Shown here piece by piece: positions 14,086 to 44,754 of a stretch of 53,370 bases of DNA (position 1 is its first letter; the number at the start of each line of letters is the position of its first letter). The stretch is from a virus (Duplodnaviria > Heunggongvirae > Uroviricota > Caudoviricetes): the IMG/VR virus record IMGVR_UViG_3300029906_000160; one strand, 5' to 3'. The notes under the pieces are model-generated. The model was not told the origin of the DNA and did no database searches. It saw only the letters and a list, made by a program, of their open reading frames with translations. Both the position numbers and the translations under genes were made by a program.

Positions 14086-17000
14086 ATGAGAATATCAGGT
14101 TTTACAACTACTAGACCTAACATGCCGGATACGAGAACTTATGAGGATTAATTAAGGTCCACTATTAAAGTAATTTGATAGTAAACATCTCTTTAATTGC
14201 TGGAACATCTCAAAGTTGGATGAGACAATCAGCAGTCAAAATTTAAATATTATATTTAAATAAGATTCAACGACTATTCGTAAGAAGTAAAATTATTTAA
14301 AATTTGAAATAAGAGATAACTTTATAAGTTAATAATATAGTCTAACCTTTATAGTGATATAAAGAATTTAGTGTTTATGAAGTTCTTGGGTGAATTTGCG
14401 CCCCAATTATAATTAAACATTACAATTGAAAATCTTGTGAATTGCTGGAAGCTATATTTTGTATATTGTAATCAGCAACTAATCCAAATTTAAATTGGAA
14501 AGCTCAACGACTATTCGTAAGAAGTAAGTTAAGTTAACTGAAGCGCAAGACATTGATGATATAGTCTAATAGTATTGGCAAATCCAGCGAGGTTAGGTAT
14601 CGTATCAACTCTGTATGATCAGTATACTGCAACTCACCTTACCGAAGCTCTCATGAATACATATACTCTTGAGAAAGGTAAGAAGAATCAGTTCCAGAGA
14701 GTTGACTCATTCTTAATTGAATGGGATCTTAATATTAATCGTATTAAGAGAGTATATATGACAGCAGTTCCTGAAGGTGATGGAGCAATGGGTTCTGACA
14801 TCCTCTTCCATTTTGCGGAGAACTACTATCAGAAGTATGATACATTTATTATTGAAAGAACTCGTCAGCAAATCATGGTTATGAATCGTCCACAGAGAGT
14901 TCGCGATAACGATTGGTTGATCGTAGGTAAACTTTTGGATAATAGCTATGATTCAGTTCTTGATACTAGTGGTGCGTTCGTAGGCTCTGCTACACGTTTT
15001 ATAACCAACATTATGCCTGAAATGCATGAAGAGGGTCAAGTATGGCTCTCTATAAAGTTTTCTAATTGCTCGAAACCCGCTCTTCTGATATTCTAAGGGT
15101 AACAAGCAGCGAAGATTTAATTTAATCACGTTCAACGACTATTCGTAAGAAGTATATAATTTATTATAGAAATGGAAACTAATTTTAAATGACTCGTCTA
15201 TAAAACAACTAATAAGAAAAATGGTAAATATTATATTGGAATTTCATATGAAGATTCAAATAATATGGATAAAAACTTTTTGGGATCTGGGATATATAAA
15301 AATGATCCATATACTTATCAATATTCTAAAACTCCATTACAATGAGCAGTTAAAACAGACGGAATAAATAATTTTGATAGAATTATAATTGGAGAATATA
15401 TAGATTATTGAAACGCAATTATTGTATTTGAAAATTTGGTTAATAAGATAACTCTTCAAAATAGAAATATTTATAATAATTTTTTACGAGGAGATTGTCC
15501 ACCACTCATTAATATTTTTGATACTAATGGTGGAAATGTTCTTGAAAAAGAAAGATTAATGAGTAAAGAATATGAATTTTATTATATAGAATCGTGTTTT
15601 AGTGGAAATTCCTTTTTAGATCCAATTACTAATAAATATGTTTATGCTTTACCTTGAAATATTTCAAATAAAAATGGAGAAATTAAATATGATCATTGTA
15701 GAAAACAGTATATTCAAAATCGCCCTGTCTTTAAATATAACGGAAAAACTGGAGAATTTATAGAAGAATATAATACTCAGGTAGAAGCCGAAAAAGCTAA
15801 TAAATATAGTAATATAACTAAATCTATAAAACTTAAAACTCCAGATAAAAACGGATTTATATGAGCTATATTTAAAGCAGATTATTATAATATTCCAGAT
15901 GAAAAAACTATTAAACTTATTGAAAGACGTGAAAGAAATCAAGCTAAGTTTGCAGCATCAAAAGCTCGTAGACGGGAAAGACTTGGATTAAAGCCAAGAA
16001 AAATTAAAGAAATAGTCTAATTATTATAGAAATATAATATAGATAATTGTATACTAAATATCAGAGCAATACGGAGAAACACCGTACTTATATGGCGACG
16101 CATCGTGCTGATGTAGATATGTCTGCACAGTACAAACCAATGGAGGATGTATTTATCCAGATTGGTAAGGGTCAGAAAGACGATCCAGTTTATAAGATGA
16201 ATTCTGCTGAGAAAGATTGTCTCGACACATTCATGATGGCTCGTAACAATGACCTTGTATGGGGTAAGACGGACGTAGATGAGAATGGACGTCCTTGAAA
16301 ATCAATAAATTACAGGGACCTTATAGCGGTGACGTTATAAGTAAAATCAATCAAATTGCTGGGAAATCCTAAAGTTCTAATAGCTACAACACAATCTAAA
16401 TGATAAATGTGAACGCTTGAAAATATTAGAAATTGGACAATCAGCAGCAAAGGCTCCTTTTGAAGGAGAATGTTCAACGACTAAATGTTTGAAATCTTAT
16501 GTATAATTATATCGTATATAAAACAACGAATATAGTTAACAACTATATTTATATTGGAGTTCACAGAACTAATTTAAAAAAAGACGATGGATATATTGGT
16601 TGTGGTTTAAGTAAAGGAGATCATGTATTTAAACAATATAAATTCCACAACGCAGTAAAAAAATACGGAAGCCATAATTTTAAAAGAGAAACACTTTTTA
16701 TTTATCCGGATACTGAATTAGGAAAAAGAAAAGCATATAAAAAAGAGGCTGAACTTGTAAATAGAGAATTTCTTAAAAGAAGGGATGTTTATAATACTTG
16801 TTTAGGAGGAAAAGTTCCGTCTTCTATAAATGAAAAACAAATAAATCAATATGATTTAGATGGAAATTTTATTAAGACTTGAAATTCTATTAAAGAAGCG
16901 GAGCGAGAGTTAAATATTTCTGATTCTGGAATTCAATCAGCTTGCAAAAAAGAAAGTTATTGTTGTAATTTTCAATGAAGATTTTTTAATGGAGATACTT

Positions 17001-20000
17001 CTAATATATCTCCAATTCAAACGAAAGAAAAAACAGTTTACCAGTTTGATTTACAAGGAAATTACATAACTTATTATAAATCAGTTAAAGAAGCTGAAAA
17101 TAAAACTGGAATTTCTTCTACTGTTATTAGTAGAGTTTGTTTAGGAAATCAATGTCAAGCTGGAGGATATTATTGAAATTATAAAAAGCGTTTTGATTTT
17201 AGAGAAAAGAAACAAAAGGTAACAGCTGTAGCATGTTATACGGATGAAGGTAAATTTATAAAATCTTTTACTTCGATAACAGAAGCAGCTAAAGAATATA
17301 ATGTAGGAGTTCCATCTATACATAAAGCAATTAGTGGGCAACGAAAGCATTGCGCAAAACTCAGATGGAGATACTTTTATGGAAATACTGATAATATATC
17401 CGCATTATAAGATTAAGATATAGTCTGCTCTATATAGAAATATATAGCTAACATTAAGGAAACTTTATGATCCTGAAACCGGAAGACCTCATCAAGGGGT
17501 TGTGTATTGGTGACAATATATTAAAATCTTCAGAATTGTTGGAAAATCTATTATATAGATAATCAACAGCCAAGACTTATTTTTAAGTAAGGTTTAACGA
17601 CTATTCGTAAGAAGTACTAAATAGGAAGTAGAAGACATCTAAATTTAATTAGATGAAGATATAGTCTCATCTTTATAGTGATATAAAGCTAAGAATAATG
17701 CTTATTTCAGGTGATGGAGTAATCGCTCAAATTGAAAGGTTTGCTACGAAGATGGTGTTCAATCGTCTTAACCCTAAATACTTTAATCGTGCTCTTCAGA
17801 TAATGATTCAGAAGAGTGAAAAGCCTAGAATAATCCCGTGGGCTTTTAAAATTCATCAAAGTGCTGAAAAATCTTAATATTAGATAATTAGCAACCAATT
17901 TAATGGTTCAACGACTAGTGGTAACACGTACAACAATGGAAATGATGAATAGTTATAATAACTAATAATATAGTCTCATCTTAATAGTAATATTAAGCTA
18001 AGAATTAGTATTGACGGGCAATACCTACATGTTCCTCTGCAACACTTTAGGAAATTAGAGTGGGTAATTAGTAATAATTACAATAATTAATCTCTTGAAT
18101 TATTGGAAAGTCCAAATTAGATTGGATAATCAATAACTAAGACTTAATACTTGAAATTGTATTAAGTAAAGCTTAACGACTAGCCATAAGGCGTACATGA
18201 TTTAAATATATTGTGGAAGTGAGAGATATCTTATTAAAGATAATGATATAGTCTAGTCTTTATAGTAATATAAAGTATTTTGTCGTAATGTGGACAGAAA
18301 TCCAGGAGACAATGAGCGCTTGGATTCGTGACTGGAAGACAGTAGGAACATTTGTATTCTCAAAGGCAGCTAATGGTTACGTTAACATTGGCGCAACTTA
18401 TCAGTCTTATGAATTTGCAGGTAAGAAACAGTATTGCCTGCTATAATTAAAAAATTATATAAAAAGTTACTAAATTGCTAGAAACTCTTTAAGCTAGTTA
18501 AACTACAATGTTGGACGAAAGATAAAACATGAACGTTTAAAAATTAATTAGATTAGACAACTAGCAGCGAATCTCCTAAGTCAAATAAGATATGGAGAAC
18601 GTTCAAAGACTATGCGAAAGCAGTAATAATTAAAAAAGTAAACATCCTATGGAATTAAAATGAATTGTATATATAACAATTAATCAATGTAATGGAAAAT
18701 TTTACATTGGAGTACACGAAACAAACCCAAATGTATGGGACAATTACATCGGGGACGGAATTTATAAACAAAGCGATGCAAAAAAAGACTTTCCTTTTCA
18801 TAAAGCTGTAAGAAAATACGGTTATAAAAATTTTAAAAGAACTACATTAGTAATATTTCCAGGTACAGAAGAAGGAAAAAAACAAGCATTTGCATTAGAA
18901 ACGATTTTAGTTAATAAAGATCTTTTAAAATCAAAACAATGTTATAATGTTGCTTTAGGAGGTCATGGAGGAGTAAATCCAGATTTAATGAGAAGAATTT
19001 ATATATTCGATTTAAATGGAAATTATTTACGTAGCTTTGAAAAAGCAAGAGATGTTGCTAAGTTTATAAATCCAAATGCAGATGGAGATGAAGAATATAA
19101 TATTATAAAAGCGATCAGAAATAATTGTTTAGGAACATCTTCTAGTTGTCATGGTTATTATATGAGTTATAAAAAAGAATTTCAATATAATAACGAATGC
19201 ATAATTCCTATAGCACAATATACTTTATCTGGAAAATTTCTTAGATATTTTAAAAGTATTATTGAGGCTGAAGAAGAACTACATATTTCTAATATATGAC
19301 AAGCAATTAATAAAAAAGGAAGTTCGGGTGGATTTCAATGAAGATATTACACTGGAGATCAATCAGATATCAGCACTTTGATCAACATCAAAACCCGAAA
19401 TACACAACTTCCAATTATAATGATCGATAAAGATACAAAAGAAGAAACTAAATATAATTCGGTTTCTGATTGTATTAAAGAGAATCCCAATTTATCTGCT
19501 TCACAAATTAATCGTGTGCTTAAAAAAATAATCAAATCACATAAAGGATTTGAATTTAAATATCAGGATGAAGATATAGTCTAATCTTTATAGAAATATA
19601 AAGTATATACGAATACTGTTACATTTAAGATTGATAGATCATTTGATATTGAATATCCTAATAGGAAATACGGAATATTCCTTGATTTAACGGCTGATGC
19701 AGCTAGTGGTAAGCCTGCCGTTGAAGAATTTGCAGCGGCAGCATAGAGTGATCTATGTTTAAAAATCCTTTTAATTGCTGGAAAGCTAAGTCTATTTAGA
19801 TATGCTAATCAGCAGCTAATTTATAGTTCAACGACTAACCATACGGTGTAGATTTAATCGAAATAAAGGAAAACTAGAAATAGTTTGTGATATAGTCTGA
19901 ACAATATAGAAATATATTGATTAACAATAAATGTGCATTCTTTACGTTTAAAAATGGTGAATTTATCCACAACTTTATTAGAGGCGTTAACTAAGCTCCA

Positions 20001-20346
20001 AACCAGCGCCAAATTGTAGTAATACAGTTTTAAAAATTTATTGAATTGCTGGAAAATATTTAGATAATATAATCAGCAGCGAATAAAATCGTTCAACGAC
20101 TATCCTTACGGAGTACAATTTTAATTGGAAGTAATAAATAACCAATTCTGGTTAATGATATAGTCTAAAATAACACAAATTAAAAGTTATATTTGTGGTG
20201 GGGCAACAGGACTTCAACATGGCGAAGTAAGCTCACCAGTAGCAGCTTCTAAGCTCATAAACTGAGGTTATGCAGCTTGTGGAGTCTTCAATCCTTATCG
20301 TTCCGTAATTCTTATTTCAGAAGAAGTATCTAATTACTTATTCTAA
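14086..20346 (+). CDS. Major capsid protein, 11 exons, 475 aa spliced
   Basis: Exons 14086-14148, 14374-14391, 14578-15036, 16050-16295, 17460-17489, 17701-17826, 18014-18047, 18286-18422, 19612-19721, 19934-19987, 20196-20346 sum to 1428 nt. They give an open frame MRISGFTTTRPNMPDTRTYED|FMKFLG|ANPARLG...VFNPYRS...YLF resembling Crassvirales MCP. Confidence 0.85.
14149..14373 (+). mobile_element. Group I intron 1 (225 nt)
   Basis: 5' exon ends in U, intron ends in G; aattgctggaa, aatcagcag, ttcaacgacta, atatagtct core; IGS gtcc pairs with ggat. Confidence 0.85.
14392..14577 (+). mobile_element. Group I intron 2 (186 nt)
   Basis: Core motifs present; P10 atttgc pairs with the 3' exon gcaaat; terminal G. 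Confidence 0.85.
15037..16049 (+). mobile_element. Group I intron 3 (1013 nt) with homing endonuclease
   Basis: IGS gctctc pairs with gagggt; agtat pairs with the 3' exon; core motifs flank an ORF. Confidence 0.85.
15172..16020 (+). CDS. Intron-encoded GIY-YIG endonuclease (282 aa, TGA=Trp)
   Basis: METNFKWLVYKTTNKKNGKYYIG; open through TGAs to TAA 16018-16020, which overlaps the P7 3' strand. Confidence 0.8.
16296..17459 (+). mobile_element. Group I intron 4 (1164 nt) with homing endonuclease
   Basis: IGS gggac pairs with gtcct; extended P5 region; P8 arms aatcttat/ataagatt flank the ORF. Confidence 0.85.
16499..17410 (+). CDS. Intron-encoded GIY-YIG endonuclease with three NUMOD1-like repeats (303 aa)
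   Basis: IVYKTTNIVNNYIYIGVH; repeats of QYDLDGNFIKTWNSIKEA type; TAA 17408-17410. Confidence 0.85.
17490..17700 (+). mobile_element. Group I intron 5 (211 nt)
   Basis: IGS gggtt pairs with gacct; aattgttggaa / aatcaacag / tttaacgacta / aagatatagtct; terminal G. Confidence 0.85.
17827..18013 (+). mobile_element. Group I intron 6 (187 nt)
   Basis: IGS gggctt pairs with aagcct; P10 cccgt pairs with acggg; P3 attcatca/tgatgaat. Confidence 0.9.
18048..18285 (+). mobile_element. Group I intron 7 (238 nt, phase 1)
   Basis: IGS gagtg pairs with cactt; P10 atta/taat; the join gives CNT-L-MW. Confidence 0.75.
18423..19611 (+). mobile_element. Group I intron 8 (1189 nt) with homing endonuclease
   Basis: IGS gcctgc pairs with gcaggt; P10 cagtatt/aatactg; P8 catcct/aggatg. 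Confidence 0.9.
18649..19584 (+). CDS. Intron-encoded GIY-YIG endonuclease with NUMOD1-like repeats (311 aa)
   Basis: MELKWIVYITINQCNGKFYIGVH; track ORFs 18988 and 19378 are in this frame; ends QDEDIV-TAA across P7. Confidence 0.85.
19722..19933 (+). mobile_element. Group I intron 9 (212 nt, phase 2)
   Basis: IGS gcggc pairs with gccgt; P10 tgca/tgca; core motifs. Confidence 0.85.
19988..20195 (+). mobile_element. Group I intron 10 (208 nt, phase 2)
   Basis: IGS gcgcc pairs with ggcgt; P10 acca/tggt; core motifs. Confidence 0.85.
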
Positions 20347-20362
20347 AAACACATATAAAGTT

Positions 20363-20400
20363 CTCCCTCTTGAAATATAGAGGGAGTTAACTTTATTTTT
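20363..20400 (+). terminator. Hairpin / probable terminator after MCP
   Basis: ctccctct-tgaaatat-agagggag then ttaactttattttt. Confidence 0.6.
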
Positions 20401-25926: not shown

Positions 25927-26754
25927 ATGGCGAGACAAGAAGCAGAAACTATTATAGGAACTGTTTATAAAATAACTAATATAATAAACAATAAAGTTTA
26001 TATTGGAGAAACAATTATGCCTATGAAAAAAAGATTTCAAACACATTTAACATCCGCTTTTAACGCCAAGTCAAACACATATAATTATTATTTTCATAGA
26101 GCTATAAGAAAATATGGAAAAGACGCTTTTATTATTGAATGTTTAGAAACAATAGAAGGAAATTTTCAAAAGTGGGTTAAAAAGAAAATTCAACAACTAG
26201 AAAAAAAATATATAAAACAATATAAATCAAATGATCCATTAGTTGGCTATAATTCAGATTCTGGAGGATTAGGAGGAAGGATTCCAAATATAGAAGTTAG
26301 ACAAAAACAAAGCCAAATAAAGAAAAATGATCCAAAAACAAAAGAAAGATTGGATTACGCTAGATCTTTTAATAAGAGTGAAAAAGAAATAAGACAATAT
26401 AATTATTATACTGGTGAATTTATAAAAGAATATAAATCAATTAAGAATGCTTCTGAAGAATTAAATTTAGATGATAGTAGTATAGTAAAATGTTGTAAAC
26501 ATCCAAATAAACATAAATATTTAAAAGTAAATAATATTAAATATACTTTTAGATATAAATCTGAAGATTATATTCCAGTTTATACTATAAAAATGACATT
26601 AGAAGACAATAGTTTTGTAGATTATTTAATAGATACAGTACAATGTTATGAAAAATATCATATAGATAGATCTCAAATTGTTAGATGTTGCAAAGGAAAA
26701 AATAATTATGCTGGAAAATATAATAATTTAAAAATGTTATGAAGCTATGTCTAG
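25927..26754 (+). CDS. Free-standing GIY-YIG homing endonuclease
   Basis: VYKITNIINNKVYIGET, a NUMOD1-like repeat (QYNYYTGEFIKEYKSIKNA), no intron core nearby; TGA 26740 then TAG 26752-26754. Confidence 0.85.
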
Positions 26755-29700
26755 ACAAGAAATATCATCAACTTTTCAGGACGGATTGATGATGGATTTA
26801 AATCCTATAAATACTCCAAAAAGTGTTTTAACTGATTGTGTAAATGGTACATTTATTACATATAATGGTAATGAATTTGTACTACAAAATGATATGGGTA
26901 ATTACGAATTAAAAAATTGTAAATTACCAACCAATTTTATTCCAGTAGGGGTAAGGGGTTATGCAGATATTCTTTATATTGTCTCGTATAATCCTTTAAC
27001 AAAAGAAGTTGAGATTGGATCTTATCCAGCACCTCAAAGTATATTTAGTACTGGAACTTCCCCAAATATAGGTCCAGATAATCAACTTACTTCTTTCACA
27101 ATTAATGAAACATTACAATATAATAATATAATTCAAGACCAGAAAAAGAATTTATATGTTTTTATGGATGGAACTGATCAAGACACATACAAAATGTATC
27201 CTGGAGATGAATTTAAAATAACTGGATTGGTTCAAGAGAACTTAGAATTTCCATATCAGCATTTAAATTTTTATATTATTGATGAAGATAATAAATTATT
27301 TGATATAGATGATACAAAATTGTATGCAAACGTATCTGAGGATTATAAAAAAGTATTCTGAGAAACTCCGGGTTGATTAGCCGCACAGTATGATTTATAT
27401 GTTCCAGATAAATTTAACTTAAATCTTAGATCGTTAAATGTTCCTGAATTTATAACTGATAATAAAAATACTTCAACACAATCTGAATTACCTCAACCAG
27501 ATGCAGATCATTTTGAAGTTTCAATGAACTTATCAGCACAAGTTATTATTTCAGATTCATTATTTCAAGCAGAATTAATGAAACATAAGATAGAAAATAC
27601 CTCTCAATTTGAACACTTAAAAGTTCGTTTTAAATTCAGTTGTGAATCTGGAAATTTTGCTTATTTAACTGAAGATCCTGCTCAAACATATACGGGAAGT
27701 GATCAAATAATTGACATAAATTGTAATTATCATAATTATCAAGATGATATTATTACAGCATACGTAAATTGTACTCCAGTTTGATTTATGAACAATCCAA
27801 CGAATCCTGAAGATTTATCTGATTATAATGGCGCTGTTTCTGTAAAAGCATATCCTATAATTGATATGGGAGGAGGAAAAGTTCTTGAATATACACAATT
27901 TACAACTACATATAATTTTAAATTAAACAATTTAAAAAATAAAAGTGCAATTAATATTGGAGAAAATATTTATAAATGATCAGTAGATGACGATAGTTGT
28001 ACAATTTCCTTTGATGTTAATGGTCCGTTTGTAAATGCAAATAATATAACTGGAAGATACGAAATTTATCGAGTTAATTTATTTAATTATTTTGAGAATA
28101 TTACAGCTGCTGAAACTGATATTGATAGTGGAAATAGTAAAAGTGCTTCTAGTTTTAAATTTAATAATGTTCAGGGAGGTATATTAACTAAAGATGAGGA
28201 AAAGAATAAATGAAATCGTACTAATGTTTTATTAAATACTTCTATTTTTCCTAAAGCAAAACTTTTAATGTGTGACGGAAATATATCTAACCTTGTTCTA
28301 TATGGACAAAACACATTAAATATTGATTGATTAACTTCAGATAAATATACATTAATAGATTTTCAAAATACTTATATTAATCCTGAATATGATGAAACTG
28401 ATGAAAATTCTAAAAAACACATAACTACAGCTTCAATAAATAAAGAAATTTCATTCGAAAAAGAGGGTGGAGTATATTTATTAAGAATTGTATTAGAACA
28501 AAATCATGAACAAATTGCGGATAAAGTTCTTCCATTAATTCCTAGTGAAGTATTTAATGAGTGATTTGGAGAAAAAGATAATTACTTAGATGAAAACAAC
28601 GGAGTAACAGGATCAGACTGAGTAAATAAATATTGAGATTTAGTTTCTGTTAATGTTTTAAATCCAAATTTTAACATTTCATTTGATAGTGAAAATTTAG
28701 AAAGTTTTAAAGTTTTACTTAAGCATAATCGTGATGAAGTCAAATGAGAATTCCTAAAAGATGAAAATAATTCTTCTTTATGAAATAAAGATTTAGTGAT
28801 ACGTGATTTAACTGATTTAAATTTGGGTCCTAATAGATTTAATTCAAATCCTACAGGAATTCAATATGACATTCAATTGCTTCCAACAATCAACAAAGTT
28901 TCTGGAGAAGTTAGTATTATAAGTAAAGCTACTAAAGGTTTATGAAATCCGATTGGTAATAATAATATTATATTTCAAGCAAACAATAAAAACATTATTA
29001 ATTATAATAATGAATTAGATACATATAATCTAATGCAAAATATAGTTATAGATTGAATCGCAAACGGAAGTAAAAATTCAATTCCTAAATTTATAAGTTC
29101 AAGATATATTTTAGACTCGGATCTTTTAATAAATGGAAATATTGATGGAAGTTTGGTATATACTGGTGGCGGATTTACTAATCCAGGTATAATTTGTAGT
29201 TGTAACGGAATATTAATAGACAAAACTAATAAAGAACAAAAAAATTTCTATGCAGAGCAAACGATTCCATGGAAAGGAACATCAGATAAAGATTCTTATA
29301 TTTTTGGAATGTTAGGTGAAATGTTAAATCGTGGAAACTGTTGCATTGCTCCTGTTAAATTTACTGCTAAAAGAGAGGTTGGGTCTACATTTTATCCAGT
29401 ATTAGTTAGCGATATTGATGATAACCCAGATTCAGCTGGAGAAGGATTAACTTGATCTAATGGCGGCCCTAATTGTCAATATTTAGTTATGCGAACTAGA
29501 GGTGGAAATAGTAATAATTCAAATAAAACAATTGCTATAAGATTAAGCGATGAAAATCTACACACATTTGCTAATATATTACGTTATATTACTATATATG
29601 AATGCTCATTGTCAAATTATGAAGATGTGTATTTTTCTTCATTTGATTTAAGTGGATTAACTAATTCTGAAAGTATAACGATAAATCAATGTATATATTC

Positions 29701-30301
29701 TGGACAAATATATCAACTTCGTTGTGATGATGAATCTTTGTTTAATTCTACTCAATTACAAAAAATTAATTCTCAGTTATTTAAAAACATTAATTTTAAA
29801 TTTAATCAAGTTATATCAACGAAACTTCCTTCAATAACTATTATACTAGATTATATTAAAAATAAATATTATTCAGAATTTTATTATAATATTAATGATG
29901 CGTTTATAGAATATAACGAAAAGCAAAGTAGTAATATAATAGAATTTTCATCATATCCTGCTGGCATATCTTTACAATATTCAGAAGATCCATATATATA
30001 CGACAATTATAATAATTTAACAGAAGAAAATAAAACCAAATTTGAAGAATATTTAACATTAATGTTTGGAGAAACAGATCTTAGTAAACTTAGTACACCT
30101 TCTAAAGATACTGTAAACAAAACTATAAATAATTTAACTAAAAAAACAGACTCGTTAAATTATTCTTTAAGTAATATTGCATTAAATATTCCTAATAACG
30201 GAACATTAAAATATGTAGAAAATCGTAAAAGTACTACAAGTGTTGCTTCGAACACAGCAAAAGTTTTAGTTTGTTATCAAACCGACACATTAGATATATA
30301 A
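26747..30301 (+). CDS. Large tail structural protein (~1184 aa, TGA=Trp)
   Basis: Five track ORFs share one frame; the N-terminus FQDGLMMDLNP...LQNDMGN is of the type found in Crassvirales tail proteins. Confidence 0.75.
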
Positions 30302-30302
30302 T

Positions 30303-33300
30303 ATGGATATTAAATTATCGGTTAAAAAATATAATCAAGAAGGCGATATGGCTCATGAATATAGGCCATTAAGAAATAAATTACTTGCAGGTGAACAACA
30401 AGATCCAAAAGTTAATCCGAAAGACTTAACTGATTTTCGAACAAAAGAAATTAATGTTGATCTTGATAATCCGCTTAATATTGAATGTCAACCTTCTTAT
30501 GATGGTACAGTAAATCTTATCATTAATGATGATAAAAATCCACCTAGAATTATTAATACTAGATTTTCTGCCATAGAAGATAATAGATTCAGAATTATCA
30601 ATCGTAATCAAAAGGAACAAACTAATATTTATGAAGAGACAATGATTGACCAACAAACACGTCTCTTTAGGAATTTAAATTTTATTCCAAGAATCCAATT
30701 AGTATCTGTAGATTATTTTGGACAATTAAAAGGTGGAAATTATACATTTTATGTTAAATTTGCAGATAACGATTTTAATAAAACAGATGTAGTTTGTGAA
30801 AGTGGACAAATTTCTATATTTAATGGAACCTTAACTTCTCCAAAAACTATAACTGGAACTCTTCAAGATGAACGAACAGATAAGGCTGTAACTATTAGAA
30901 TTAATAATATAGATACTTCATTTCAGAAAGTTTATCTCTATTATACTCGTGAAACTTGTGATGCTAATGGTTCTAGAATTACAGAAGTAGCGATGATTAA
31001 AGAACCTTATGATATTAAGAATAATTATCTTGATATTACTATAAATGGATTTGAAGAAATAGAAGAGATAAGTGAATCTGAATTAAATATACGATACTTA
31101 TATGTAGATAGAGTTAAAACTCAGACACAAAATCAAGGAATGCTGTTCTTTGGAAATGTTGAAATGAGCACAATTGATCCTAGAGATTTACAAGCTCTAT
31201 CTTTATATATAAATGTTGAATTAACACATAAAACAGAATCAATTGGATATGTTGATACTAACTACGAAGGTCAAAAAACAGATGATGCAGAACAAATAGA
31301 ATATTATAATCCACAAAACGTTTATTATAATCTTGGATATTGACCAGATGAAATGTATCGTCTTGGTATAGTTTATATAATGAGAGACGATAGTTTATCT
31401 GAAGTCTTTAACTTAAGAGGAATTAAATATAGTTTAGGAAGGGAAGATATTCCAAGTGTATTATCTAATATTGATGATACTACTTCTAGTGAAGTTACTG
31501 CTGAATATCAACAATGATATGAGCGTGAAGATGAAAACAAACCAATTGAAGAACGTAAAATTAATTATATTCCAAAAGAAGACTTTATTTTAAATGGACA
31601 ACATTTAAATAATACAATGGGAGTATTTAAACTTCCCGCAGATATTCAAATTTTTGATCATAATAATTCAAAAACACATCCTTGAGGATTTAAAATTAGC
31701 ATTAAATCGGATCTTAGAGAAAAATTAAGATCTATGGGAATTAAAGGATTTTTTATTGTAAGACAAAAAAGAATTCCAACTACATTATGTCAAGGATTAT
31801 CGATCGGTATTGATAGAACTAGTCACGTACCTACAATTCCTATTTTCGAAGAAACTAAAAATGGAGACACAATATCATATAAAACACGTTACATAACAGA
31901 AGGTTTTATAGATGATAATGGAACACTTAGCACAAATTTTAAAAAGAAAACAAGTGATTTTAAAGCAACTTCTGCTTTGTTATCTGTAGATTCTTGTGTA
32001 ACTCCGATATTACAATCAATGTTTGATGGATCTGAATATACAATTCAATCTTATGAAGCACGTTGAATTAAAAATCAACAAGATAATAGAATTTTTACTG
32101 CCGAATATGATGAAACTTTATTAAAGAATAAGAATGAATTAACAGGAATTCAAACTATAGAGTCACAAAAATTAAATACAATATTTGTGCAGGGAGATGT
32201 TCCTTTTAAATATATAGCTAACCAAAGTTTTTCTACTAGAGCTGGAGTTGCAGAAGATGTACAACAAATTGCATTCTTTGATCAACAAAATTATAAAGAA
32301 GATTATAGAAATCTTTTACGTGGAATTTGGTGTCCAATATTAGGATTATCAAGTAATATTAAAGATGCTTGAATTTATAACGTTAAAGTAAAAAACTTCT
32401 CTAACGTATTTGAACAAGAATATTTTAAAATTCGAGGTAATGATAATTCCCCATTCTATGCAATTAGTGATAGATGAGCGATTGATGATCCAAAGTCAAA
32501 CGAAATAGAAGTATACAGAGGAGATTGTTATACTTGTACAGTAAGTATGAGATTACAACGTAACTTTGTAGATTCTGATGTTCCTGTAAACGAAACAATT
32601 GTTGATCCAAATACTTGAAAAGATCATTATCATGGATATAATACTACTGATGAAGAAGATTGATTAGATATTAATAGAGGTGATGTAAATACTTCTCCAA
32701 TTGGTTCTTGAATTACTTGAAAATGTTTTAGTAATTATAATTTAGGATTAAGATCTCAAGATTATACTAATGTTGAAGAAATGGCACTTATGGGTAATCC
32801 TCGTTCATTCTATCCTATTACTGGAGCATCTACTTCAGTGGCTAACAAAATAGACGAATCTTGAAAACTAAATGATGGTTATTCTTCAACTGTAGGAAAG
32901 AAATATTTTCTTCCAGTTCAAGATGTACCGTATACAAGAGACATATTTGACACAAGAATTATGTTCTCTAATGTTCAGCAAGACGATGCTTTTCAAAATG
33001 CTTATAGAATATTTCAAGGTTTGTCTTACAAAGATATGGATAGACAATATGGAGCTCTTGTTAAATTAATTACTTGAGGTTCTAATCTATTAGCAATCTT
33101 TGAACATGGGATTACAATCATTCCTGTTAACGAGAAAGCGTTACTTACTACAAATACAGGCCAATCTGTACACATGTATGGTGCAGAAGTATTACAAAAT
33201 CAAATGACTGTAATATCTCAAGATTATGGTTCTATTTGACCAGAATCTATTATTAGAACACCAATTGCTGTATACGGAGTAGATACCTATGCAAAGAAAA

Positions 33301-34955
33301 TTTGAAAACTTGGAGTATCTAACGATTTTACTTTAATCTCTGATGCAAAAATTCAAAGATTCTTAAATGATCATATTAGACTTAAAGAGAAAGATAAATA
33401 TCCAACAGTAGCATTAAGAAATGTAAAATCACATTATAATAACTATAAAGGTGATATAATGTTTACTTTCTATAATGATACAGAAGAGGAAGAATGAAAT
33501 ATATGCTATAACGAGAGACTTGATAAATGGTCTACTAGATATTCTTGGATTCCACTTTATTCAGACAATGTAAATAATATATATTATTCATTAGATAAAA
33601 AGAGATCTGAAATACTTGCTTATATATATGATAATATTAATGCAGAAGCTGGCATTGTTAGTTTAGATAATAACAGTAATGTTTGAAGTAATTTAAATAA
33701 TAATCATACTGTCACATTTAGTATTAAGTCATATGATTTTTATAAATACTTTAAATTTGAAATCGAAGCTATTAAATCTTCATATATAAATGAAAATGGA
33801 GTTGAACAGATTGTCATTTTACCATGAAAGCCTCAAGAATCAGATTGATTAGCTAATGTTAGAATCAATAACAATAAAATAGAAGCTTATGGTTCTGAAG
33901 CAGAATTAGCTAATAATAAGCAAGGAAAGTTAATTTTATCTAAAGACGCTCTTTCTACTTACGACGGACATAAATTATATTATTGATATTTTATTGTAAA
34001 AGCTACTCCTTATACAACAGCAGAAAATAGTGATAAACTTATAACTGGAGAAACTTTTAATACAGTCTTTGGAATTGTTACAGATTATAATAAATTAAAT
34101 GGTCCAGATGACGATCCAAATAGTGATAAGTTTAAATATAATGAATTACTTAGAAATGGATTCTATATTCATGGTCGTGCTGGAATATTTGATGAAATTA
34201 ATTACTTTAATGAAGACGTAAGCAAAGAAGATCAAATAATGCCAACTACATGATACGATAAACAAGAACCATTTGAATTTGAATTTGTAGTTAATGAACC
34301 TACTGGATTACATAAAATATTTAACAATCTTGTTATTATCTCTAATAATGTTCAACCTTCTGAAATAGAATACGAAATAGTTGGAGATGTTTATGGATTT
34401 AATAAAGCTGGAATATTCTGAAAACAGAATAAGAATTATTGAGAAAAACGTGAAGATCCAGATTCATATAAATCTAAAGAATGAGGAGATTATAATACTC
34501 CAGTTCAATTACTTCCAGATAAAGATACAGAATTTGTAAAAGGAAATGAGTTATCTAAAGATTCTCAAAGATTACCTTGAATTAAAGATAATCCAGCTAA
34601 AACTTCAGAAGACTTTAAAAATACTACTGTTGAATGAGATCCAATTTTAAATCAATATCTTCTTAAAGTAAATCAACCTTGCTATGATATTAAAGAATAT
34701 GGACGTATGAGAGGTAATATTACATATAAAGAGGATGCTTGATATTTAACCATAGATCCAATTCTATTTAGAAAAGCAGATACAGAAAATGCAGAGTATG
34801 GAGTAACTGGAAATACGGATATTGATGAAAAAAGACAGGATTATAAATCAACTCGTATTAGAGATAAATGATGCAAGATTAGAATAAAATATACAGGAAA
34901 AGATTTGGTTTTAATTAGTGCGATTAAAACTATGATAACTATGAGTTACGCATAA
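30303..34955 (+). CDS. Tail stabilisation/muzzle-like protein (~1550 aa, TGA=Trp)
   Basis: Track ORFs 30303, 31734 and 32187 are in frame; C-terminus RIRDKWCKIRIKYTG...ISAIKTMITMSYA-TAA. I read parts of 33100-34700 less closely. Confidence 0.7.
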
Positions 34956-37662: not shown

Positions 37663-40600
37663 ATGTCACAAGTAAGAAAATTTAAAGACGGAGGAAGTAA
37701 TACTGCAGAAACTACTTCCAAATCTAAACACAATAGTAAATATGGCCATTATATTGTGGATGGAACTACTTATGATGTCAATGATGATTTTATTCGTGAT
37801 TATATAGCTAGTGCAAAACAGTTTGACGATAATAGTACAAATACAGTTGCAAGTCATGTAGTTAATGCACTTAAATCAGGTCAAGATGTTTCTTTAGATA
37901 CTTTAAATAACAGAATTTATGGTATTAATAATTATCTAAATTCTGAAGATGTTGAAAGATCTAATGAGTATTCTCAAAACTCATTAAATAAAAAGTATCA
38001 ACGTAAGTATCGTAGAAAAGAAGCAAGACCTAATTCATCATTACATCAATTAAATATAGGTATTTCGAATTTAGGATCAATTAATTTTACAAATCCTGTC
38101 AAAAAAGCTGATCAACAATCCGCAACATCTTTAATTGATTTATACAGAGATACTAGAAATTTTGATTACAATTCTAATTCTGACGGAACATTAGTATGAT
38201 CTAATGGACCGCAAAATGCAGGTAATTTAGCTGCATTAAATAATTTTATTGATATGCTTAGTATGTCTGAAGAAGACGCTAAGAAAAAATATAATTGAAC
38301 TGGATATGAGGATCAAATTAATGATTTAAGAACATGATATGCGGGAAATCAAAATTATGATTGGGAAGGTCTTAGATCTCGTATTAAAGAAAATCAATTA
38401 GATGATGCAGATTGGGATATTCTTCGTTATATGGGATTTGGAGAAAATCAGCCAAGTTCAAGTTCTGCTTCAAATACTGATAATACTCCCCGTTCATATG
38501 AAGGTTCTGGACTTAACAATGATTGGTTAACTAGAAATAATTATTATGTTCAAAAAGGTTCAGATGAAAACACATATCTTTATCGTTTAGGAACTGATGA
38601 AAATGGAAAACCAAAATATTTAATAGATACATCTGCTAAAATATATCTTCCAAATATGGGGATTCTTGGAGATAATTCTCAATGAAATGGAGGAGCTATT
38701 ATTAACGGGCGTTTTTATACAGAAAATGAAATATGAGATCCTAATTCAGCAGCAGGACAATCTTTTGCAGAATTAACTAGAGCTTGAAATTCTGGTTCTG
38801 GCGAAACATCTTGACTAAATGCGAAAAATACAGGGTGAAGATTCGCAGGATCAGATGCAGATAATTATATGTTTTCTACCTATGATAGAAATACTGGAAC
38901 AAATCCTTTGTGAGATCAATATTTTGACCAATATAAGGACGATGATAATATATGGTATGTAAGAAATTTAGCAAATAATTTTTTAGGTACTCCTAAAGGA
39001 ATGGAAATTATATCATATATTGATCAAAATAATAGATCTAAAGCTGGTTATGAAAATCCTTATTTTGCTGTTTATAATCCAATAGATAAACAATTTAAAC
39101 GATTTGAAAACGAAGAAGCATTAAGTTCTTATTTACAGGGATTAAATATCCAAAAGCAAAGTTCTCTTTATTCTGGAGATGCTAATTTTGATATATATGA
39201 TTTTTTATTTGATAAAAATAAAAATAAGTATTCATATGTTTCTCCGATAAATACATTTACTGGAACTGGTTCATCTCAACAAAGCACTGAGTTATATAAA
39301 GGACCTGATGGAAACTATTATTATCTTTTAGATAATTCTAATCCAGAAGATTTACAATTTATTCGTATTGATGATCAAAACGTAATTAATCAAATATTAA
39401 ATGGTCAAACTATATCTAATGAAAATCTTCCATCTTGAGCAAAGCGTAGATTATTAGAACGTGGAAAAAGAAGATACATGAAACAAGGTGGAAAAATAGA
39501 TTTTAATAAAATCAACTATTTACAAAAACATCAATACGGAGGTATCTTTTCTAATCCATATACAGGATCTACAAATAAAGTAGAACGTAATAAAGATGCA
39601 AAAATAACAATTGGGGGTTCACATCAAGCTTTTGGAGGTGGAAAACACGGAGTTCGTACAGAAGCAGACAAATTAGCTAATTGAGCTACTGGATTTGATA
39701 CAGCTGCTGTAGGAACGTCATTTATACCTGTTTATGGAAATATTGTTGGTGCAGCATCTGGTTTAACCGGTTCAGCTTTACGATTTGCTTCTGACATCAA
39801 GAAAGATGGATTTCAAGGTAAAGATTTATGAAGATTTTTAGGTAATGTTGGATTAGATGCTCTTACTTTAATTCCAGGTTTAGGTTCAGCAGCAGCAGGA
39901 ATCAAAGCTACTAAAGGTGCATCTAAAGTAGCTAAAGTTGCATCTACAATAGCTAAAGGAGCAGGTAAAGTATCAAAATGAGGAGATACCACAAAAGTAG
40001 GAAAAGCCGTTACATATGGATTACCTGCAATGGGAGTATTACAAGGAACAAGTGCAGCCATTCAAGCAGCTACAGATGGACAACCATTAACTACAGATCA
40101 ACTACAAACAATTGCTGGAGGTTTAATAGGAGGAGTAATACTTGGAAATAAAGCTGGAAAAGCTTTCAATAATAAAGCGTTAAAATCAATTCAAAAAGAA
40201 TTAGGATTAAATAAATCTAAATCTTATGAATATAAATCTAAGGATAAAACAGTAAGTTTATCTAAAGATGATATTAATGCAATAGCTAATAAAAAGGTAT
40301 CTGAGGTTAACGAGTTTCTTTATAATAAACTTAAAAATGCAGGAATTGAATTAGAGAAACCTAATTTTGAAACTGCAACTTTATGAAAAGATTTTGGAAT
40401 TACTGCGAATGTAAGTAAAAAAGGAATTAAAGGTTGATGAGGAAATAAACTAAAAATAAAACAAGAAAAACCCAATTCTATAGAAAGTTCTAACTTACAA
40501 AATGAAGATTTAGCTAAAAGATTAACAAATCCTCAATCACGAATTGAACGTAGAGCTCAAAAAGCATACAGTGAACAAATTCTTCAGAATCCTAAATTAG

Positions 40601-42885
40601 CAGCATTTGTAAGAAAAATAACTGGAACAAAAGTAAGACCACAGGGGCAATGAGCTTTTGGAGGATGAGGCACAAATTGAATTAATAGAGTTAAACCTAT
40701 AGTTTCACAAAGATTGGCTACCGATTCAGTAAATCCTGTAAAATCACCGGTGTTACTATTGCCTGCTTGAAAAGGAAATAATATTTCTGAAGTAAATATT
40801 TTACCTTCATCTAATAGTCCAATTACTACACCTTCTTCTCCGTTAATACAAATTCCACAATATGCATCTTCATATAGAAACGCACAAGGACAGTTCTTGT
40901 TACCTCGTGGAGATGGAAGATTTTTTAAGAGAACGCAACGTGTGTGAAATGGAGGTCCTGCACACGAAGTAATTCAATTACAACCAGCTAAATATTCTAG
41001 AACTCCCCGTAAATCTACTAGAAGAAATATTGGATTAGAACAAGCGCATAAATCAAAGGTTCTACAAGAAGCTGGAAGACAACAAATGCCTGTAATTCGT
41101 GGATTACAAGAAGATATAGCTAAAGTAAGAACAAGCGAAGATTTTAAAAATTTGTTATTTAAAATAAATAATAGAAATTCTTATAAAGAAATAATTAAAA
41201 ACAATCCTGAAATTAAGGATCAGTTACGTCAAATGTTTATTCATTTAGATCCTGTAAGACTTGGAAATTGAATGACAAAATATGATTTACGTTTTAAAAA
41301 GGGTGGAAAAATAGTTAAAGGTCAAAATGGATTAAAACCTGGAGACTTAGTATATAATAATACATCTTCTCCATCTTATTTTGATTATAATCGTTCTGGA
41401 ATTAAATTTAATGGATCTAATGTTGATTGAACTGCAACGTATGATCCAAATAGTTTATATTCAAAATACAGAAACATTTATCTAAATAATTGAAATAATC
41501 CAGAATTTAATATATATAAACAAGCATATTTAAATCAATTATCACAAGGTAACAGTAACATTGATGTAAATAACCTATCGAAAGATGAGTTTGCGAGAAT
41601 TACTAATGATGGTTTATTAGGATATGCACATAACTTATATGTTGATCCAAATAGAGATAATGGGTTATATAGTTTAGCTATGAATCAACTTCCAGCAGCT
41701 ACTGTTACAGCAAAAAGTAATATAAAGCCTATTCCTCAAGGAAAAGCTGTAGCTCAGTCAAGTTTAGGTTTAATTCCAAATCCAGCTTTATCCAATAATA
41801 ATCAAGTAGTTGAAGAAACAAAACAAAGTACACGAAAATCTTCTGGTGCAGGAAGTCAATATACTAATGCTAATTCAGTACTTAAAAATCTTAATTTTAA
41901 TCCAGACGATTTATTTGGTTTAATTGAGACTACTAGAAGTATTATAGCTAATAATCAATTATATAAGGATTTAAAAGAAGCTAATACTGCTATACTAAAA
42001 CCTTATATGCCAGAAATTTATGATCGTTATCAAGATCATATAACTCCGATTTATCAAGAAGCTGCTAAAGCAAAGAGAAATTTTGTTCCAACTTCAACAG
42101 ATTCTACTGTTAATTATGCTATGCGTCAAGCAAACGAAGATGCTGCTCAACAATTAGAAACTAAAGGAAGATTAAAAGCCTCAGAACAATACTCTCAATA
42201 TCTCGATAAGGATTTAGCTGCAAGAAGAGCATATGCAGAAGATAGGCGTAATACCGCTTTCTATAATACTCAAGAAATGGCTAATAAGGTAATGCGTGAT
42301 GCTCAAATTGAACAAGGAAGAAAATTAGCAAATAATCAATCTATTTCTAATTATGTAATGGAAATGAGAAATAAATTTGCTCAAGATAGAGCTAAATCTC
42401 AAGCCTTCCAGAAACAACAAGATGCTTTATTAGCTCAGCAAGCATTAAATGCAGAAGTAAATAAAGCCGCACAAAAATGAAGAACTATGTTTGCTAATAT
42501 GGATCCTGAGGAAAGAAAAGCACGTGGCTATGATTCATATGAAGATATATGATTAGAACAAGATCCTGAATCTTATAATAACGCATACATAACAGGACAA
42601 TTAAAAGCACAGCAATATTTACAGGACAATCAAAATAAATACATAGATTATTTATTTAATAAAGTTCCTTATGTAAGTTTATTAGCAAATTATAAAACAC
42701 CTGTTTCTATGCCAGCTTATATGTCTTCATTTAAATCTGGAGGAAAAACTCGAAAATATATACAAAGACATAATGGCCCAAAACCAGACGAAGCTATTTG
42801 GATTCAAAGAAACAAAGATACTGCTAAAGCTTTAGAAAAATTACATGATGCAGTAATTAAACTATTTATGAAATCAATTTCGTAA
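37663..42885 (+). CDS. Large cargo/ejection protein (~1740 aa, TGA=Trp)
   Basis: Seven track ORFs in one frame with no TAA/TAG until 42883-42885; central Gly/Ala hydrophobic segments; five xxxGG motifs. Confidence 0.8.
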
Positions 42886-44754
42886 ATGAAAATACGTAAA
42901 AATAACATAGAGAAGAAACAATCAGGGGGTATTATATATACTCCCTTTGTTCCTTCTTATAACACTTCTGAAGCTGAGAGTAGTTCTTCTAATTCCTCAT
43001 CTTCAGATGAAGGAAAGATAGGAGATATACAAAAAGAGATATTAGATGTTCTTCAGGAAAATGGATTACCCAGTGATGTAGATACTTTTATGAAATCAGC
43101 AAATAGATTTCTTAGAAAAGCGGAAATCACCGGAGAATGATCTATGGCAGATTTCACTAGAATACAATCTTTGGCTAATCGTGTTGCTCATAATAAAACA
43201 TTATATGATGCAGCAACACAACATTTGACTGAAACTGGAAATTGAAACGAAGTTGCTTTAAATGATAAAGGACAAATGTATGTAATAAATAGAGATAGTA
43301 AAGTTATAGCTATAGATCCTGGAGAATATTATAAAAATAGAGATAATTATCAAGCTCTAACTAATAACGACATACTTGAATTTAGAAGTAACGCTAGTCC
43401 ATTTGATAGTTCTGTTTTAAATTCCTTATCTGGATCTATTGGTTTAGATGACATATTAGATTATGCTAAAGGAATTGCTCTTGATTTTGGAACTAGATCA
43501 ATTTCTGGATATACAAATAGTGATATAGCTAAAATGGATGAAGCTCTCAATAGATTAATTAACAATGGTCCAAAAGGATATTACAAATATAAAGAAGAAT
43601 CACAAAATGGAGGAGGAGCTACAGTAGAAGCAGTTCAATATTTATATAACTCTCTTCCAAATAACATGAAACAGCTATTAAGAGCTAAAACTGCTGCTGA
43701 AGGACAAGATCCTAATGTTCATTATGCTGATTTATTAGCACAAATATTATCAAATCATCTTGATTATTCTGTTTCTACTGATTTTGATTCTGTTGCTACT
43801 TCTGCAGCTAAAGGAACTTCTGGTTCTGGATCCGGAGGAGTAAGCGATACTTATTTAAGAAAAGTATCTACTTTTTCTAATGTTAAAAGAGATCATATAA
43901 ATCTTGTTCCTAACTATAATTCTCCAATAGATCAAGGAATGATGACTGTTTCTGCTTATAAATTAGGACCTATAACAGATAGATTAACAGATAATATCGA
44001 TACTGATAAATTCTCACTTAATTATCTTATATCTAAAGCAGAATTTATTAAATCTGGTAATACAGAGATGATTTCAATGGGAGGTAGAGTACTTAGCCCA
44101 GCAGAATTTAATAAGGTAATGATTAATAATAGTGCTCAAGTAAATGGAGTTGTACTTCCATATAAAGTAGACGCTAATGGAAGATATATACCAGATTTTG
44201 ATAAAGTAGAAGTATTTAATGCGTGAAATAAAGAAATTCAAAATAATCCAAATATAACCGAAATGGAAGCTGAAGATTTAGCTAATCAAGTTGGATTAAG
44301 TGGAAATGATGTAGAATATGATCATCAAACTAAGTCATTCAAGCTTAGAAATACAATGCAATTTTATGCTGTATCTGGATATATAAATTCTGAAGTAGTA
44401 GATATAGATGATAATATGAAACGTTGACTTTATCATATGACTCGTCAAGAAGGAAAACAGCTTAAAGACGAATATGACAATTTACTAGTTTATAGAACTA
44501 CAACACCTTCTAAAAATGATAGAAAAATCGGAAGTCTTGGATTTATGGGCAAGACTAAAGATGGTAATGCAAATTCTTTTTATGAAGGTATGATATTTAT
44601 TCCTATTACTAATCCAGAACTTGGATCATTACTTACAGTACATGGAAAATTATCTAATGATATGGCTAATGATCCAATAACATTTATGACTGCTGATCAA
44701 ATTTTACAGCAATCTAGAGAAAATACTAACGAAGACATAGGTAGTTGACATTAA
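42886..44754 (+). CDS. Virion cargo-type protein (622 aa, TGA=Trp)
   Basis: Track ORFs 42886, 43276 and 44437 are in frame; TAA 44752-44754 overlaps the next ATG. Confidence 0.8.

Follow-up and report, generated by a model that had tools for sequence, protein, structure and literature searches.

How can a phage capsid gene be spread over eleven exons and still be a single working gene? The question is posed by a 53,370-nucleotide (nt) stretch of DNA from a virus of the Caudoviricetes (IMG/VR record IMGVR_UViG_3300029906_000160), the whole of which we call the window. Positions 14086-20346 of its plus strand (6261 nt) form one gene composed of 11 exons and 10 group I introns. Very probably the gene is functional and is the one gene for the major capsid protein (MCP) of a crAss-like phage, interrupted by ten mobile introns.

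The identity of the gene is revealed by its relatives. Translations of single exons gave no capsid match when searched against PHROG and Pfam. A tblastn search with exon 3 led to two unannotated gut phage records. One of these, MT835470 (locus L002), contains an uninterrupted open reading frame (ORF) of 473 amino acids (aa) that matches the Pfam family PF23898 'Crassvirus major capsid protein' at 52 bits (cut-off 27), and also phrog_11589, a major head protein. The same Crass_capsid profile is passed by the intronless proteins of L002, L005, L009 and L012 (30-52 bits). Residues 1-470 of L002 tile onto the window by tblastn as eleven collinear pieces. To place the junctions, every frame-preserving pair in which the exon ended in U and the intron in G was scored against L002, and tied candidates were settled by the P1 and P10 pairing of the intron. 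The exons are as follows.

14086..14148 (+): exon 1, 63 nt, aa 1-21, ATG start; tblastn match to residues 1-21 of intronless L002
14374..14391 (+): exon 2, micro-exon of 18 nt encoding FMKFLG; the homolog has FYKFLG
14578..15036 (+): exon 3, 459 nt, aa 28-180; tblastn E 3e-44 to L002
16050..16295 (+): exon 4, 246 nt, aa 181-262; tblastn E 6e-21
17460..17489 (+): exon 5, micro-exon of 30 nt encoding KLYDPETGRP; the homolog has TLFDPDTGRP
17701..17826 (+): exon 6, 126 nt, aa 273-314; tblastn E 1.5e-8
18014..18047 (+): exon 7, micro-exon of 34 nt; TGNTYMFLCN, compared with TGNKYVLICN in the homolog
18286..18422 (+): exon 8, 137 nt; tblastn E 4e-13
19612..19721 (+): exon 9, 110 nt; tblastn E 7e-9
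19934..19987 (+): exon 10, 54 nt; tblastn match to homolog residues 416-431
20196..20346 (+): exon 11, 151 nt including the TAA stop; 72% identical to the homolog C-terminus

The exons total 1428 nt (22.8% of the 6261 nt) and encode 475 aa plus the stop when TGA is read as tryptophan; the introns total 4833 nt, 77% of the gene. An earlier note on this DNA, written from the sequence alone, had given the same 475-aa frame with 1428 of 6261 nt (23%) as exon, and our junctions reproduce it exactly, together with all six of the junction peptides it listed (YED/FMK, FLG/ANP, EEG/YTK, GRP/KLY, CNTL/MW and RGV/GGA). The spliced product aligns with the intronless L002 protein from end to end; the two are 50% identical, and none of the ten junctions coincides with a gap. 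The sole in-frame TGA of the 475-codon frame (20263-20265, in exon 11) aligns with the tryptophan of KLINWGY in the homolog; the other six tryptophan codons are TGG. The G+C content of the exons is 0.39, compared with 0.23-0.30 for the introns. In each intron an in-frame stop codon is met 0-22 codons beyond the 5′ splice site, so that unspliced RNA would yield truncated peptides only. Since the inserts change the frame, are full of stop codons and match a ribozyme model, inteins, frameshifts and translational bypass were rejected as explanations.

The inserts have the properties of group I introns, listed here with their scores against the Rfam group I model RF00028 (gathering score 50 bits) and the lengths of their P1 and P10 helices in base pairs (bp).

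14149..14373 (+): intron 1, 225 nt, no ORF; 61.5 bits; P1 4 bp, P10 4 bp
14392..14577 (+): intron 2, 186 nt, no ORF; 68.2 bits; P1 4 bp, P10 6 bp
15037..16049 (+): intron 3, 1013 nt; halves 35.3 + 23.3 bits; P1 7 bp, P10 6 bp
16296..17459 (+): intron 4, 1164 nt; 58.0 bits (5′ half) and 28.9 bits (3′ half); P1 5 bp, no P10
17490..17700 (+): intron 5, 211 nt, no ORF; 74.2 bits; P1 5 bp, P10 3 bp
17827..18013 (+): intron 6, 187 nt, no ORF; 63.1 bits; P1 8 bp, P10 5 bp
18048..18285 (+): intron 7, 238 nt, no ORF; 58.7 bits; P1 5 bp, P10 4 bp
18423..19611 (+): intron 8, 1189 nt; halves 36.9 + 29.4 bits; P1 6 bp, P10 9 bp
19722..19933 (+): intron 9, 212 nt, no ORF; 77.8 bits; P1 7 bp, P10 4 bp
19988..20195 (+): intron 10, 208 nt, no ORF; 41.1 bits, below gathering score, E 5e-8; P1 5 bp, P10 4 bp

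Seven matches reach the gathering score (58-78 bits, E 4e-18 to 3e-12), those of introns 1, 2, 4, 5, 6, 7 and 9. A permissive scan of both strands of the 53 kb adds six further matches (E up to 0.09), which represent intron 10 and, in the three ORF-bearing introns, a 5′ or a 3′ half. The 13 matches all lie within the capsid gene and none outside it, and thus the covariance model finds all ten of the introns that had been claimed and nothing else. Intron 10 scores 134 bits with a hidden Markov model (HMM) of the compact introns, in a training set that included intron 10 itself.

At every one of the ten introns a U closes the 5′ exon and is paired with a G of the guide sequence within a P1 helix of 4-8 bp, and the terminal base of the intron is G, as the earlier note had stated. 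It had also seen P10 in most of them; we find it in nine of the ten, with 3-9 bp. The mean lengths are 5.6 bp for P1 and 4.5 bp for P10, compared with 2.65 and 0.64 for random U/G pairs of the same window, and none of 20,000 resamplings reached the observed value (p<5e-5). The 3′ ends given by Rfam stop short of the true terminal G in several introns, or run past it. For intron 2 the Rfam end at 14587 is 10 nt too far, while the homolog alignment, P10 and the joined contigs described below all cut after 14577. Its terminal G lies 10 nt past P7′, compared with 29-37 nt in the other nine (14561-14587), and the hairpin taken as P9 by Rfam straddles the 3′ splice site into exon 3.

The core structures are also preserved. 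From an alignment of the seven compact introns RNAalifold recovers P2, P3, P4, P5, P6, P7.1, P7.2 and P8, with compensatory (two-sided) changes at 29 of the 40 predicted core pairs. All ten introns, the ORF-bearing ones included, contain the J6/7-P7 motif TCAACGACTA, or something close to it, together with the J8/7-P7′ motif GATATAGTCT, so that the core motifs claimed earlier are borne out for P7 and P7′. The P4 strands of introns 4 and 10 were missed or misplaced by the pattern search and were identified by eye. From the additional P7.1 and P7.2 hairpins we infer that all ten introns belong to one family of IA type. Subgroup IA is the usual type of group I intron in phages. Global pairwise identities between the introns (73-86%) were discarded as uninformative, being inflated by AT-richness and gap settings. 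A megablast search of GenBank phages returned 34-nt intron-core matches only, and an exact 30-nt word from an exon had no match in IMG/VR. A stretch of 34 nt at the 3′ end of intron 4 (17415-17448, comprising the P7′ strand and the next hairpin) recurs with 100% identity in unannotated regions of Escherichia phage Pollock and of the AM1/LW81 group of Lactococcus phages, which suggests that it may be a phage intron module of wide distribution.

Purifying selection has acted on the exons. Between exon 3 and that of the closest relative, L003, there are 54 differences of which 41 fall at third codon positions, and the ratio of non-synonymous to synonymous substitution rates (dN/dS) is ~0.09. No second MCP is found in the 53-kb window or in the complete 176.9-kb genome of the closest relative, where all MCP matches lie in one split locus. 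The junctions are weakly enriched at conserved residues (0.754 compared with 0.696, p ~0.05), which we do not count as evidence. An AlphaFold2 model of a 70%-identical homolog, calculated from a 7-sequence alignment, had a predicted local distance difference test score of 48 and was unusable, and profile and sequence searches of solved structures gave no match.

Are the exons found joined? We compared contigs from three RNA-labelled public sequencing runs (X15, X30 and X16, the last labelled 'RNA? (probably DNA)') and one DNA run (X5). RNA-library contigs of X15 and X30, which come from two studies, together join all ten junctions. The joint 14148 to 14374 that removes intron 1 is present in a DNA contig of X5 and an RNA-library contig of X30. 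Exon 2 runs straight into exon 3 (14578) at the ends of RNA-library contigs, and joined forms at intron 2 are found in X15 and X5. Two RNA libraries contain the joint 15036 to 16050 across intron 3. A 673-nt RNA-library contig spans exon 4 to exon 9, with 104 nt between its anchors, the exact spliced distance across introns 4 and 5; exons 6, 7 and 8 are likewise connected in RNA-library contigs. The joint 18047 to 18286 (intron 7) occurs in X15 and in a long X16 contig, and 18422 to 19612 (intron 8) in all four runs. Exon 9 is joined to 19934 in RNA-library contigs, and exon 10 to the start of exon 11, with joined forms at intron 10 in X30 and X5. The DNA run X5 has joined alleles at sites 1, 2, 8 and 10, and also contains intron 4. 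The X16 contig, of 116,751 nt, is a phage genome ~90% identical to this one. In it sites 2, 3, 4, 6 and 10 are occupied by introns, the one at site 4 having a different ORF, and introns 1, 5, 7, 8 and 9 are missing, with breakpoints exactly at the called boundaries. Among these four runs the joined forms at introns 3, 4 and 6 are confined to RNA libraries, matching the prediction for splicing. The depth of contigs in the RNA libraries looks higher over the exons than over introns 4 and 8, an observation that we left unused since per-contig depth cannot rank the parts of a gene.

How general is the interruption of this gene? We compared 82 relatives, 80 from IMG/VR and two from GenBank. The majority have an uninterrupted MCP gene of 1.41-1.43 kb; zero or one intron is the usual number, and the closest have five to six. 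In about twenty the only insert is at residue 408, where intron 9 lies in the window (a site filled in 20+ relatives). The number rises to between two and six in closer relatives, whose inserts are at residues 21, 27, 180, 262, 279, 318, 408 and 450; in the window the sites are at residues 21, 27, 180, 262, 272, 314, 325, 371, 408 and 426. Pooling these, the MCP family has at least 12 insertion sites, ten of which are filled in this phage. Orthologs at the same site are found in L003 for intron 2 (83% identity), intron 3 (80% over 987 nt) and intron 9 (96% over the 5′ 98 nt), and in L011 for intron 4 (67% over 1172 nt). A tree of intron cores, of 126 columns only, gives support of 0.92-0.99 to the site-specific pairs for introns 2, 3 and 9. 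Window introns 1, 5, 6 and 10 cluster in it, with only the pair of 6 and 10 supported (0.91), and we tentatively suggest that these four may have arisen by recent local expansion. Two further MCP sites, after residues ~279 and ~450, have no intron in the window but carry inserts in relatives (L003 10776-11641, L013 10016-10880, L004 11211-12366 and L007 10552-11708). The insert of 865-866 nt at residue 279 has no Rfam match at gathering score and no match to the intron-family HMM; it may be a different kind of element. A member of the same intron family lies in another gene, ~6 kb upstream of an intronless MCP, in L025 (2698-2880) and L051 (4423-4605).

The relatives have genomes of 165-190 kb with a high density of introns, and their genetic code alternates between standard, TGA read as tryptophan and TAG read as glutamine within one MCP clade. 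Indeed, intact intronless genes of this one clade exhibit all three: four or five in-frame TAG codons at glutamine positions (L001 6440-7861, L015 and L047), one TGA at a tryptophan (L006 1703-3121), or no recoded stop (L005, L009, L012 and L022). The phage that carries the ten introns is accordingly best described, as far as its sequence and relatives allow, as a probable large, TGA-recoded, Zeta-like crAss-like phage of the chicken gut.

Three of the introns contain ORFs, which are open only if TGA encodes tryptophan and look broken under the bacterial code.

15172-16020 (+): GIY-YIG-type endonuclease ORF of intron 3, 282 aa, 5 in-frame TGA; phrog_314 E 7e-6
16499-17410 (+): GIY-YIG/NUMOD1 endonuclease ORF of intron 4, 303 aa, 3 TGA; NUMOD1 E 2e-22, phrog_314 E 4e-25
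18649-19584 (+): GIY-YIG/NUMOD endonuclease ORF of intron 8, 311 aa, 3 TGA; phrog_314 E 5e-24

The family phrog_314 is one of homing endonucleases. The NUMOD1 matches of the intron 4 and intron 8 ORFs (E 1e-10 in the latter) exceed the Pfam cut-off, and an I-HmuI NUMOD-like match exceeds its own. The Pfam GIY-YIG match of the intron 8 ORF (E 1e-3) is below threshold, at 19.8 compared with 22.6 bits, and the SegE_GIY-YIG match of the intron 3 ORF is weak. The three proteins are mutually 27-34% identical, and are predicted to be diverged homing endonucleases of the GIY-YIG/NUMOD kind. In introns 3 and 8 the ORF has its stop codon within the conserved P7′ strand ATAGTCTAA (16012-16020 and 19576-19584). 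Thus the C-terminal coding region overlaps P3′, P8 and J8/7 of the ribozyme in these two introns, and translation of the ORFs should compete with folding of the core.

A number of points weigh against a functional gene with ten active introns. Introns 3 (35 + 23 bits), 8 (37 + 29 bits) and 10 (41 bits) are under the gathering score, with E values of 5e-8 to 0.01; in introns 3 and 8 this is because the ORF splits each match. No P10 is detectable for intron 4, nor does intron 2 have an ordinary P9 hairpin. Membership of the spliced protein in PF23898 is by way of its 50-70% global identity to homologs that are members. For this phage itself the search for a second MCP copy covers the 53-kb window only, to which the genome of the closest complete relative is added. 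The earlier note had looked to junction reads as the check on splicing, and all ten junctions are indeed joined in RNA-library contigs, but these contigs derive from relatives that are 85-95% identical and not from this phage. Intronless DNA alleles exist at seven of the ten sites, so that intron-poor strains could have supplied the joined contigs, as DNA or as RNA; RNA libraries may contain DNA. We therefore take the joined RNA-library contigs as suggestive of splicing, not as proof. In vivo splicing in this phage is strongly implied, short of being proven.

It may be asked whether the introns could all splice unaided. Several might be unable to do so alone, with trans factors such as the ribosome or an RNA chaperone, a protein cofactor from phage or host, or a neighbouring intron gating the output of capsid. 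Ten near-identical cores on one RNA, with identical P7 strands and shared P7.1 and P9 hairpins, would invite mispairing between introns, the ribozymes are separated in places by micro-exons of just 18-34 nt, and to the missing P10 of intron 4 and P9 of intron 2 is added the extension of the intron 3 and 8 ORFs into P7′, where translation should disturb the core. Against this, none of the introns is without a complete core and a guide sequence of its own, and self-splicing in vitro is established for phage IA introns such as that of T4 td. The earlier note had suggested that MCP output may depend on splicing kinetics or on an unspecified maturase or chaperone. Neither idea finds support in the results: the intron ORFs are predicted GIY-YIG/NUMOD endonucleases only, Pfam and PHROG searches found no maturase-type (LAGLIDADG) ORF within the capsid gene, and no candidate cofactor emerged. 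We consider an obligatory trans factor distinctly unlikely.

The ten-intron allele might instead be a composite created by metagenome assembly from strains that each have a subset of the introns, with no single genome containing ten. Strains with different subsets do coexist in chicken-gut samples, and X5 and X15 each hold both intron-containing and joined forms. However, four chicken-gut runs of one study contain 0.97-1.00 of 657 31-mers sampled across the 6.3 kb, when other chicken-gut studies contain ~20-25% of these words; the runs with 97-100% may of course be the source of the assembly itself. A 31-mer is longer than either of the micro-exons of 18 and 30 nt, and thus words that span them physically link intron 1 to intron 2 and intron 4 to intron 5. 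Contigs from independent studies cross exon-intron boundaries (X5 over 16253-17446, X15 over 18396-19641 and X16 over 14425-16295), and the junctions show no frame errors or duplicated exon ends. A composite is thus very improbable. That the locus is a decaying pseudogene overrun by mobile elements, with capsid made from another MCP gene elsewhere in the genome, is hardly credible, for while 77% of it is intron and the second-copy search was limited to the window for this phage itself, the 475-codon frame is perfect and aligns with its homolog end to end at a dN/dS of ~0.09, the ten ribozyme cores are intact and covarying, the 53 kb has no second copy, and the closest complete relative has a single MCP locus that is likewise split.

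A functional capsid gene with ten group I introns is consequently the reading that we prefer, and its expression may be envisaged as follows. A late transcript of ~6.3 kb would be made as a single RNA, within which each intron would fold its own P3-P9 core. The guide sequence would pair with the final 4-8 nt of the upstream exon to form P1, with the U•G pair at the point of cleavage, and in nine of the introns with 3-9 nt at the start of the downstream exon to form P10. Two guanosine-initiated transesterification reactions would then excise the intron and ligate the exons, and ten such events would generate a 1428-nt mRNA encoding a 475-aa crAss capsid protein of presumed HK97-type fold. The putative endonucleases of introns 3, 4 and 8 would need suppression of UGA and would presumably be made late, driving homing into intronless alleles during co-infection. 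Homing of this kind would lead close relatives to carry differing subsets of introns at identical sites. We speculate that the serial splicing of ten look-alike ribozymes separated by micro-exons of 18-34 nt might set the timing or yield of capsid.

The introns could also be kept by selection and not merely tolerated, if filled sites confer immunity to circulating homing endonucleases. Each insertion would destroy the target site of an endonuclease circulating among co-infecting relatives, so that filling all ten sites would protect the capsid gene from every such enzyme; the phage's own three endonucleases would cut the capsid genes of competitors, a form of interference competition, and the seven ORF-less introns would be cheap copies conferring immunity only. 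Interference competition has been shown for an intron endonuclease of phage PhiPA3 (PMC11620839). We put this forward tentatively, as an idea that is more probably wrong than right.

How novel is such a gene? Individual aspects of it are familiar. The T4 introns, td with I-TevI and sunY/nrdD with I-TevII, occur one to a gene in genes of nucleotide metabolism. The present introns resemble those IA introns in having P7.1 and P7.2, U•G at the 5′ splice site, predicted endonucleases of GIY-YIG and NUMOD type and presumed homing into intronless alleles, and differ in that ten lie in one structural gene, with ORFs placed after P7.1/P7.2 and running into P7′. In Staphylococcus phage Twort, orf142 has three group I introns in one gene; again several related introns occupy a late gene, but three in place of ten, and in a phage without recoding. 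Fungal mitochondrial cox1, for example that of Agaricus bisporus, holds at least a dozen homing group I introns, inserted at conserved sites, and is similarly an essential gene saturated with such elements. It differs in being in an organelle, with protein-assisted splicing and no race between transcription and translation within a lytic cycle.

The closest published parallels are other gut phages. For the Delta and Zeta crAss-like phages the density of both group I introns and inteins was described as 'unprecedented': the MCP is among the usual targets, a Zeta MCP is in five fragments (cMAG OLRF01000054), a genome has as many as 14 introns, and the intron ORFs can be read only with suppression of TGA (Yutin 2021, PMC7886860); a review of 2023 restates the findings (PMC10136315). 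The precedent that the earlier note invoked for Crassvirales structural genes therefore exists for the MCP itself. The relatives of the present phage have the hallmarks of the Zeta group, with genomes of 165-190 kb and switching recoding of stop codons. A Crass_capsid MCP, the same gene with the same type of element and endonuclease ORFs requiring TGA suppression are also shared, so that the kind of element is already known. The published Zeta case differs in having five MCP fragments in contrast to ten introns in one gene, and in coming from human and not chicken gut. Moreover, the published introns were counted by their endonuclease domains, a procedure that would miss the seven of the ten introns here that have no ORF. 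The Jug jumbo gut phages contain many short (~206 nt) group I introns that split essential genes, with a mean of 18.5 per genome of 360-400 kb, 37 of 76 being confirmed as spliced by metatranscriptome reads (PMC12880540). They are similar in being gut phages of Bacteroidales type with short introns in essential genes; in contrast their introns are distributed genome-wide, terL is in two to three fragments, the code is standard and no ten-intron gene is reported (PMC12880540). Lastly, a report on Cluster J mycobacteriophages describes introns in capsid and tail genes, with splicing required for the capsid protein (PMC3706429). The capsid-gene intron is shared with these, but their introns are single and the phages belong to another group.

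What is new is thus the degree, with ten introns in one gene of which seven lack an ORF. The arrangement was called extreme in the earlier note, fairly so given the zero or one intron of most of the 82 relatives, the five to six of the closest and the five fragments of the published example. Ten introns making up 77% of a gene is the heaviest intron load on a single phage gene that we have found in the searchable literature, and it falls on the protein that the virion needs in highest copy number. The gene provides a test of how many near-identical ribozymes on one bacterial transcript can fold, pair correctly and avoid skipping micro-exons, and of the cost in yield of ten obligatory splicing events, where for example an efficiency of 0.9 per event would give ~0.35 overall. 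It is equally a test of whether stacked introns are selfish ballast, or protection and weaponry in competition between phages. In practical terms, gene callers will miss or shatter such capsid genes, and counts based on endonuclease domains underestimate the introns.

The surroundings of the gene are in keeping with its assignment. The adjoining genes encode a P22-like portal and crAss ring proteins 1 and 2 (tail ring proteins), and we are therefore dealing with a crAss-like structural block. A scan for sigma-70 promoters was at background, with 46 found and 40 expected. Beginning 17 nt past the MCP stop codon there is a terminator-like element, a match to the consensus only.

20363..20386 (+): terminator-like hairpin, 8-bp stem with 5 G-C pairs and a T-rich tail

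Further along the window an ORF of >2875 aa with 27 in-frame TGA codons (44745-53369) runs past the window end, and other giant TGA-rich ORFs lie at 26747-30301, 30303-34955 and 37663-42885. Tail or cargo proteins and virion RNA polymerase are their probable products.

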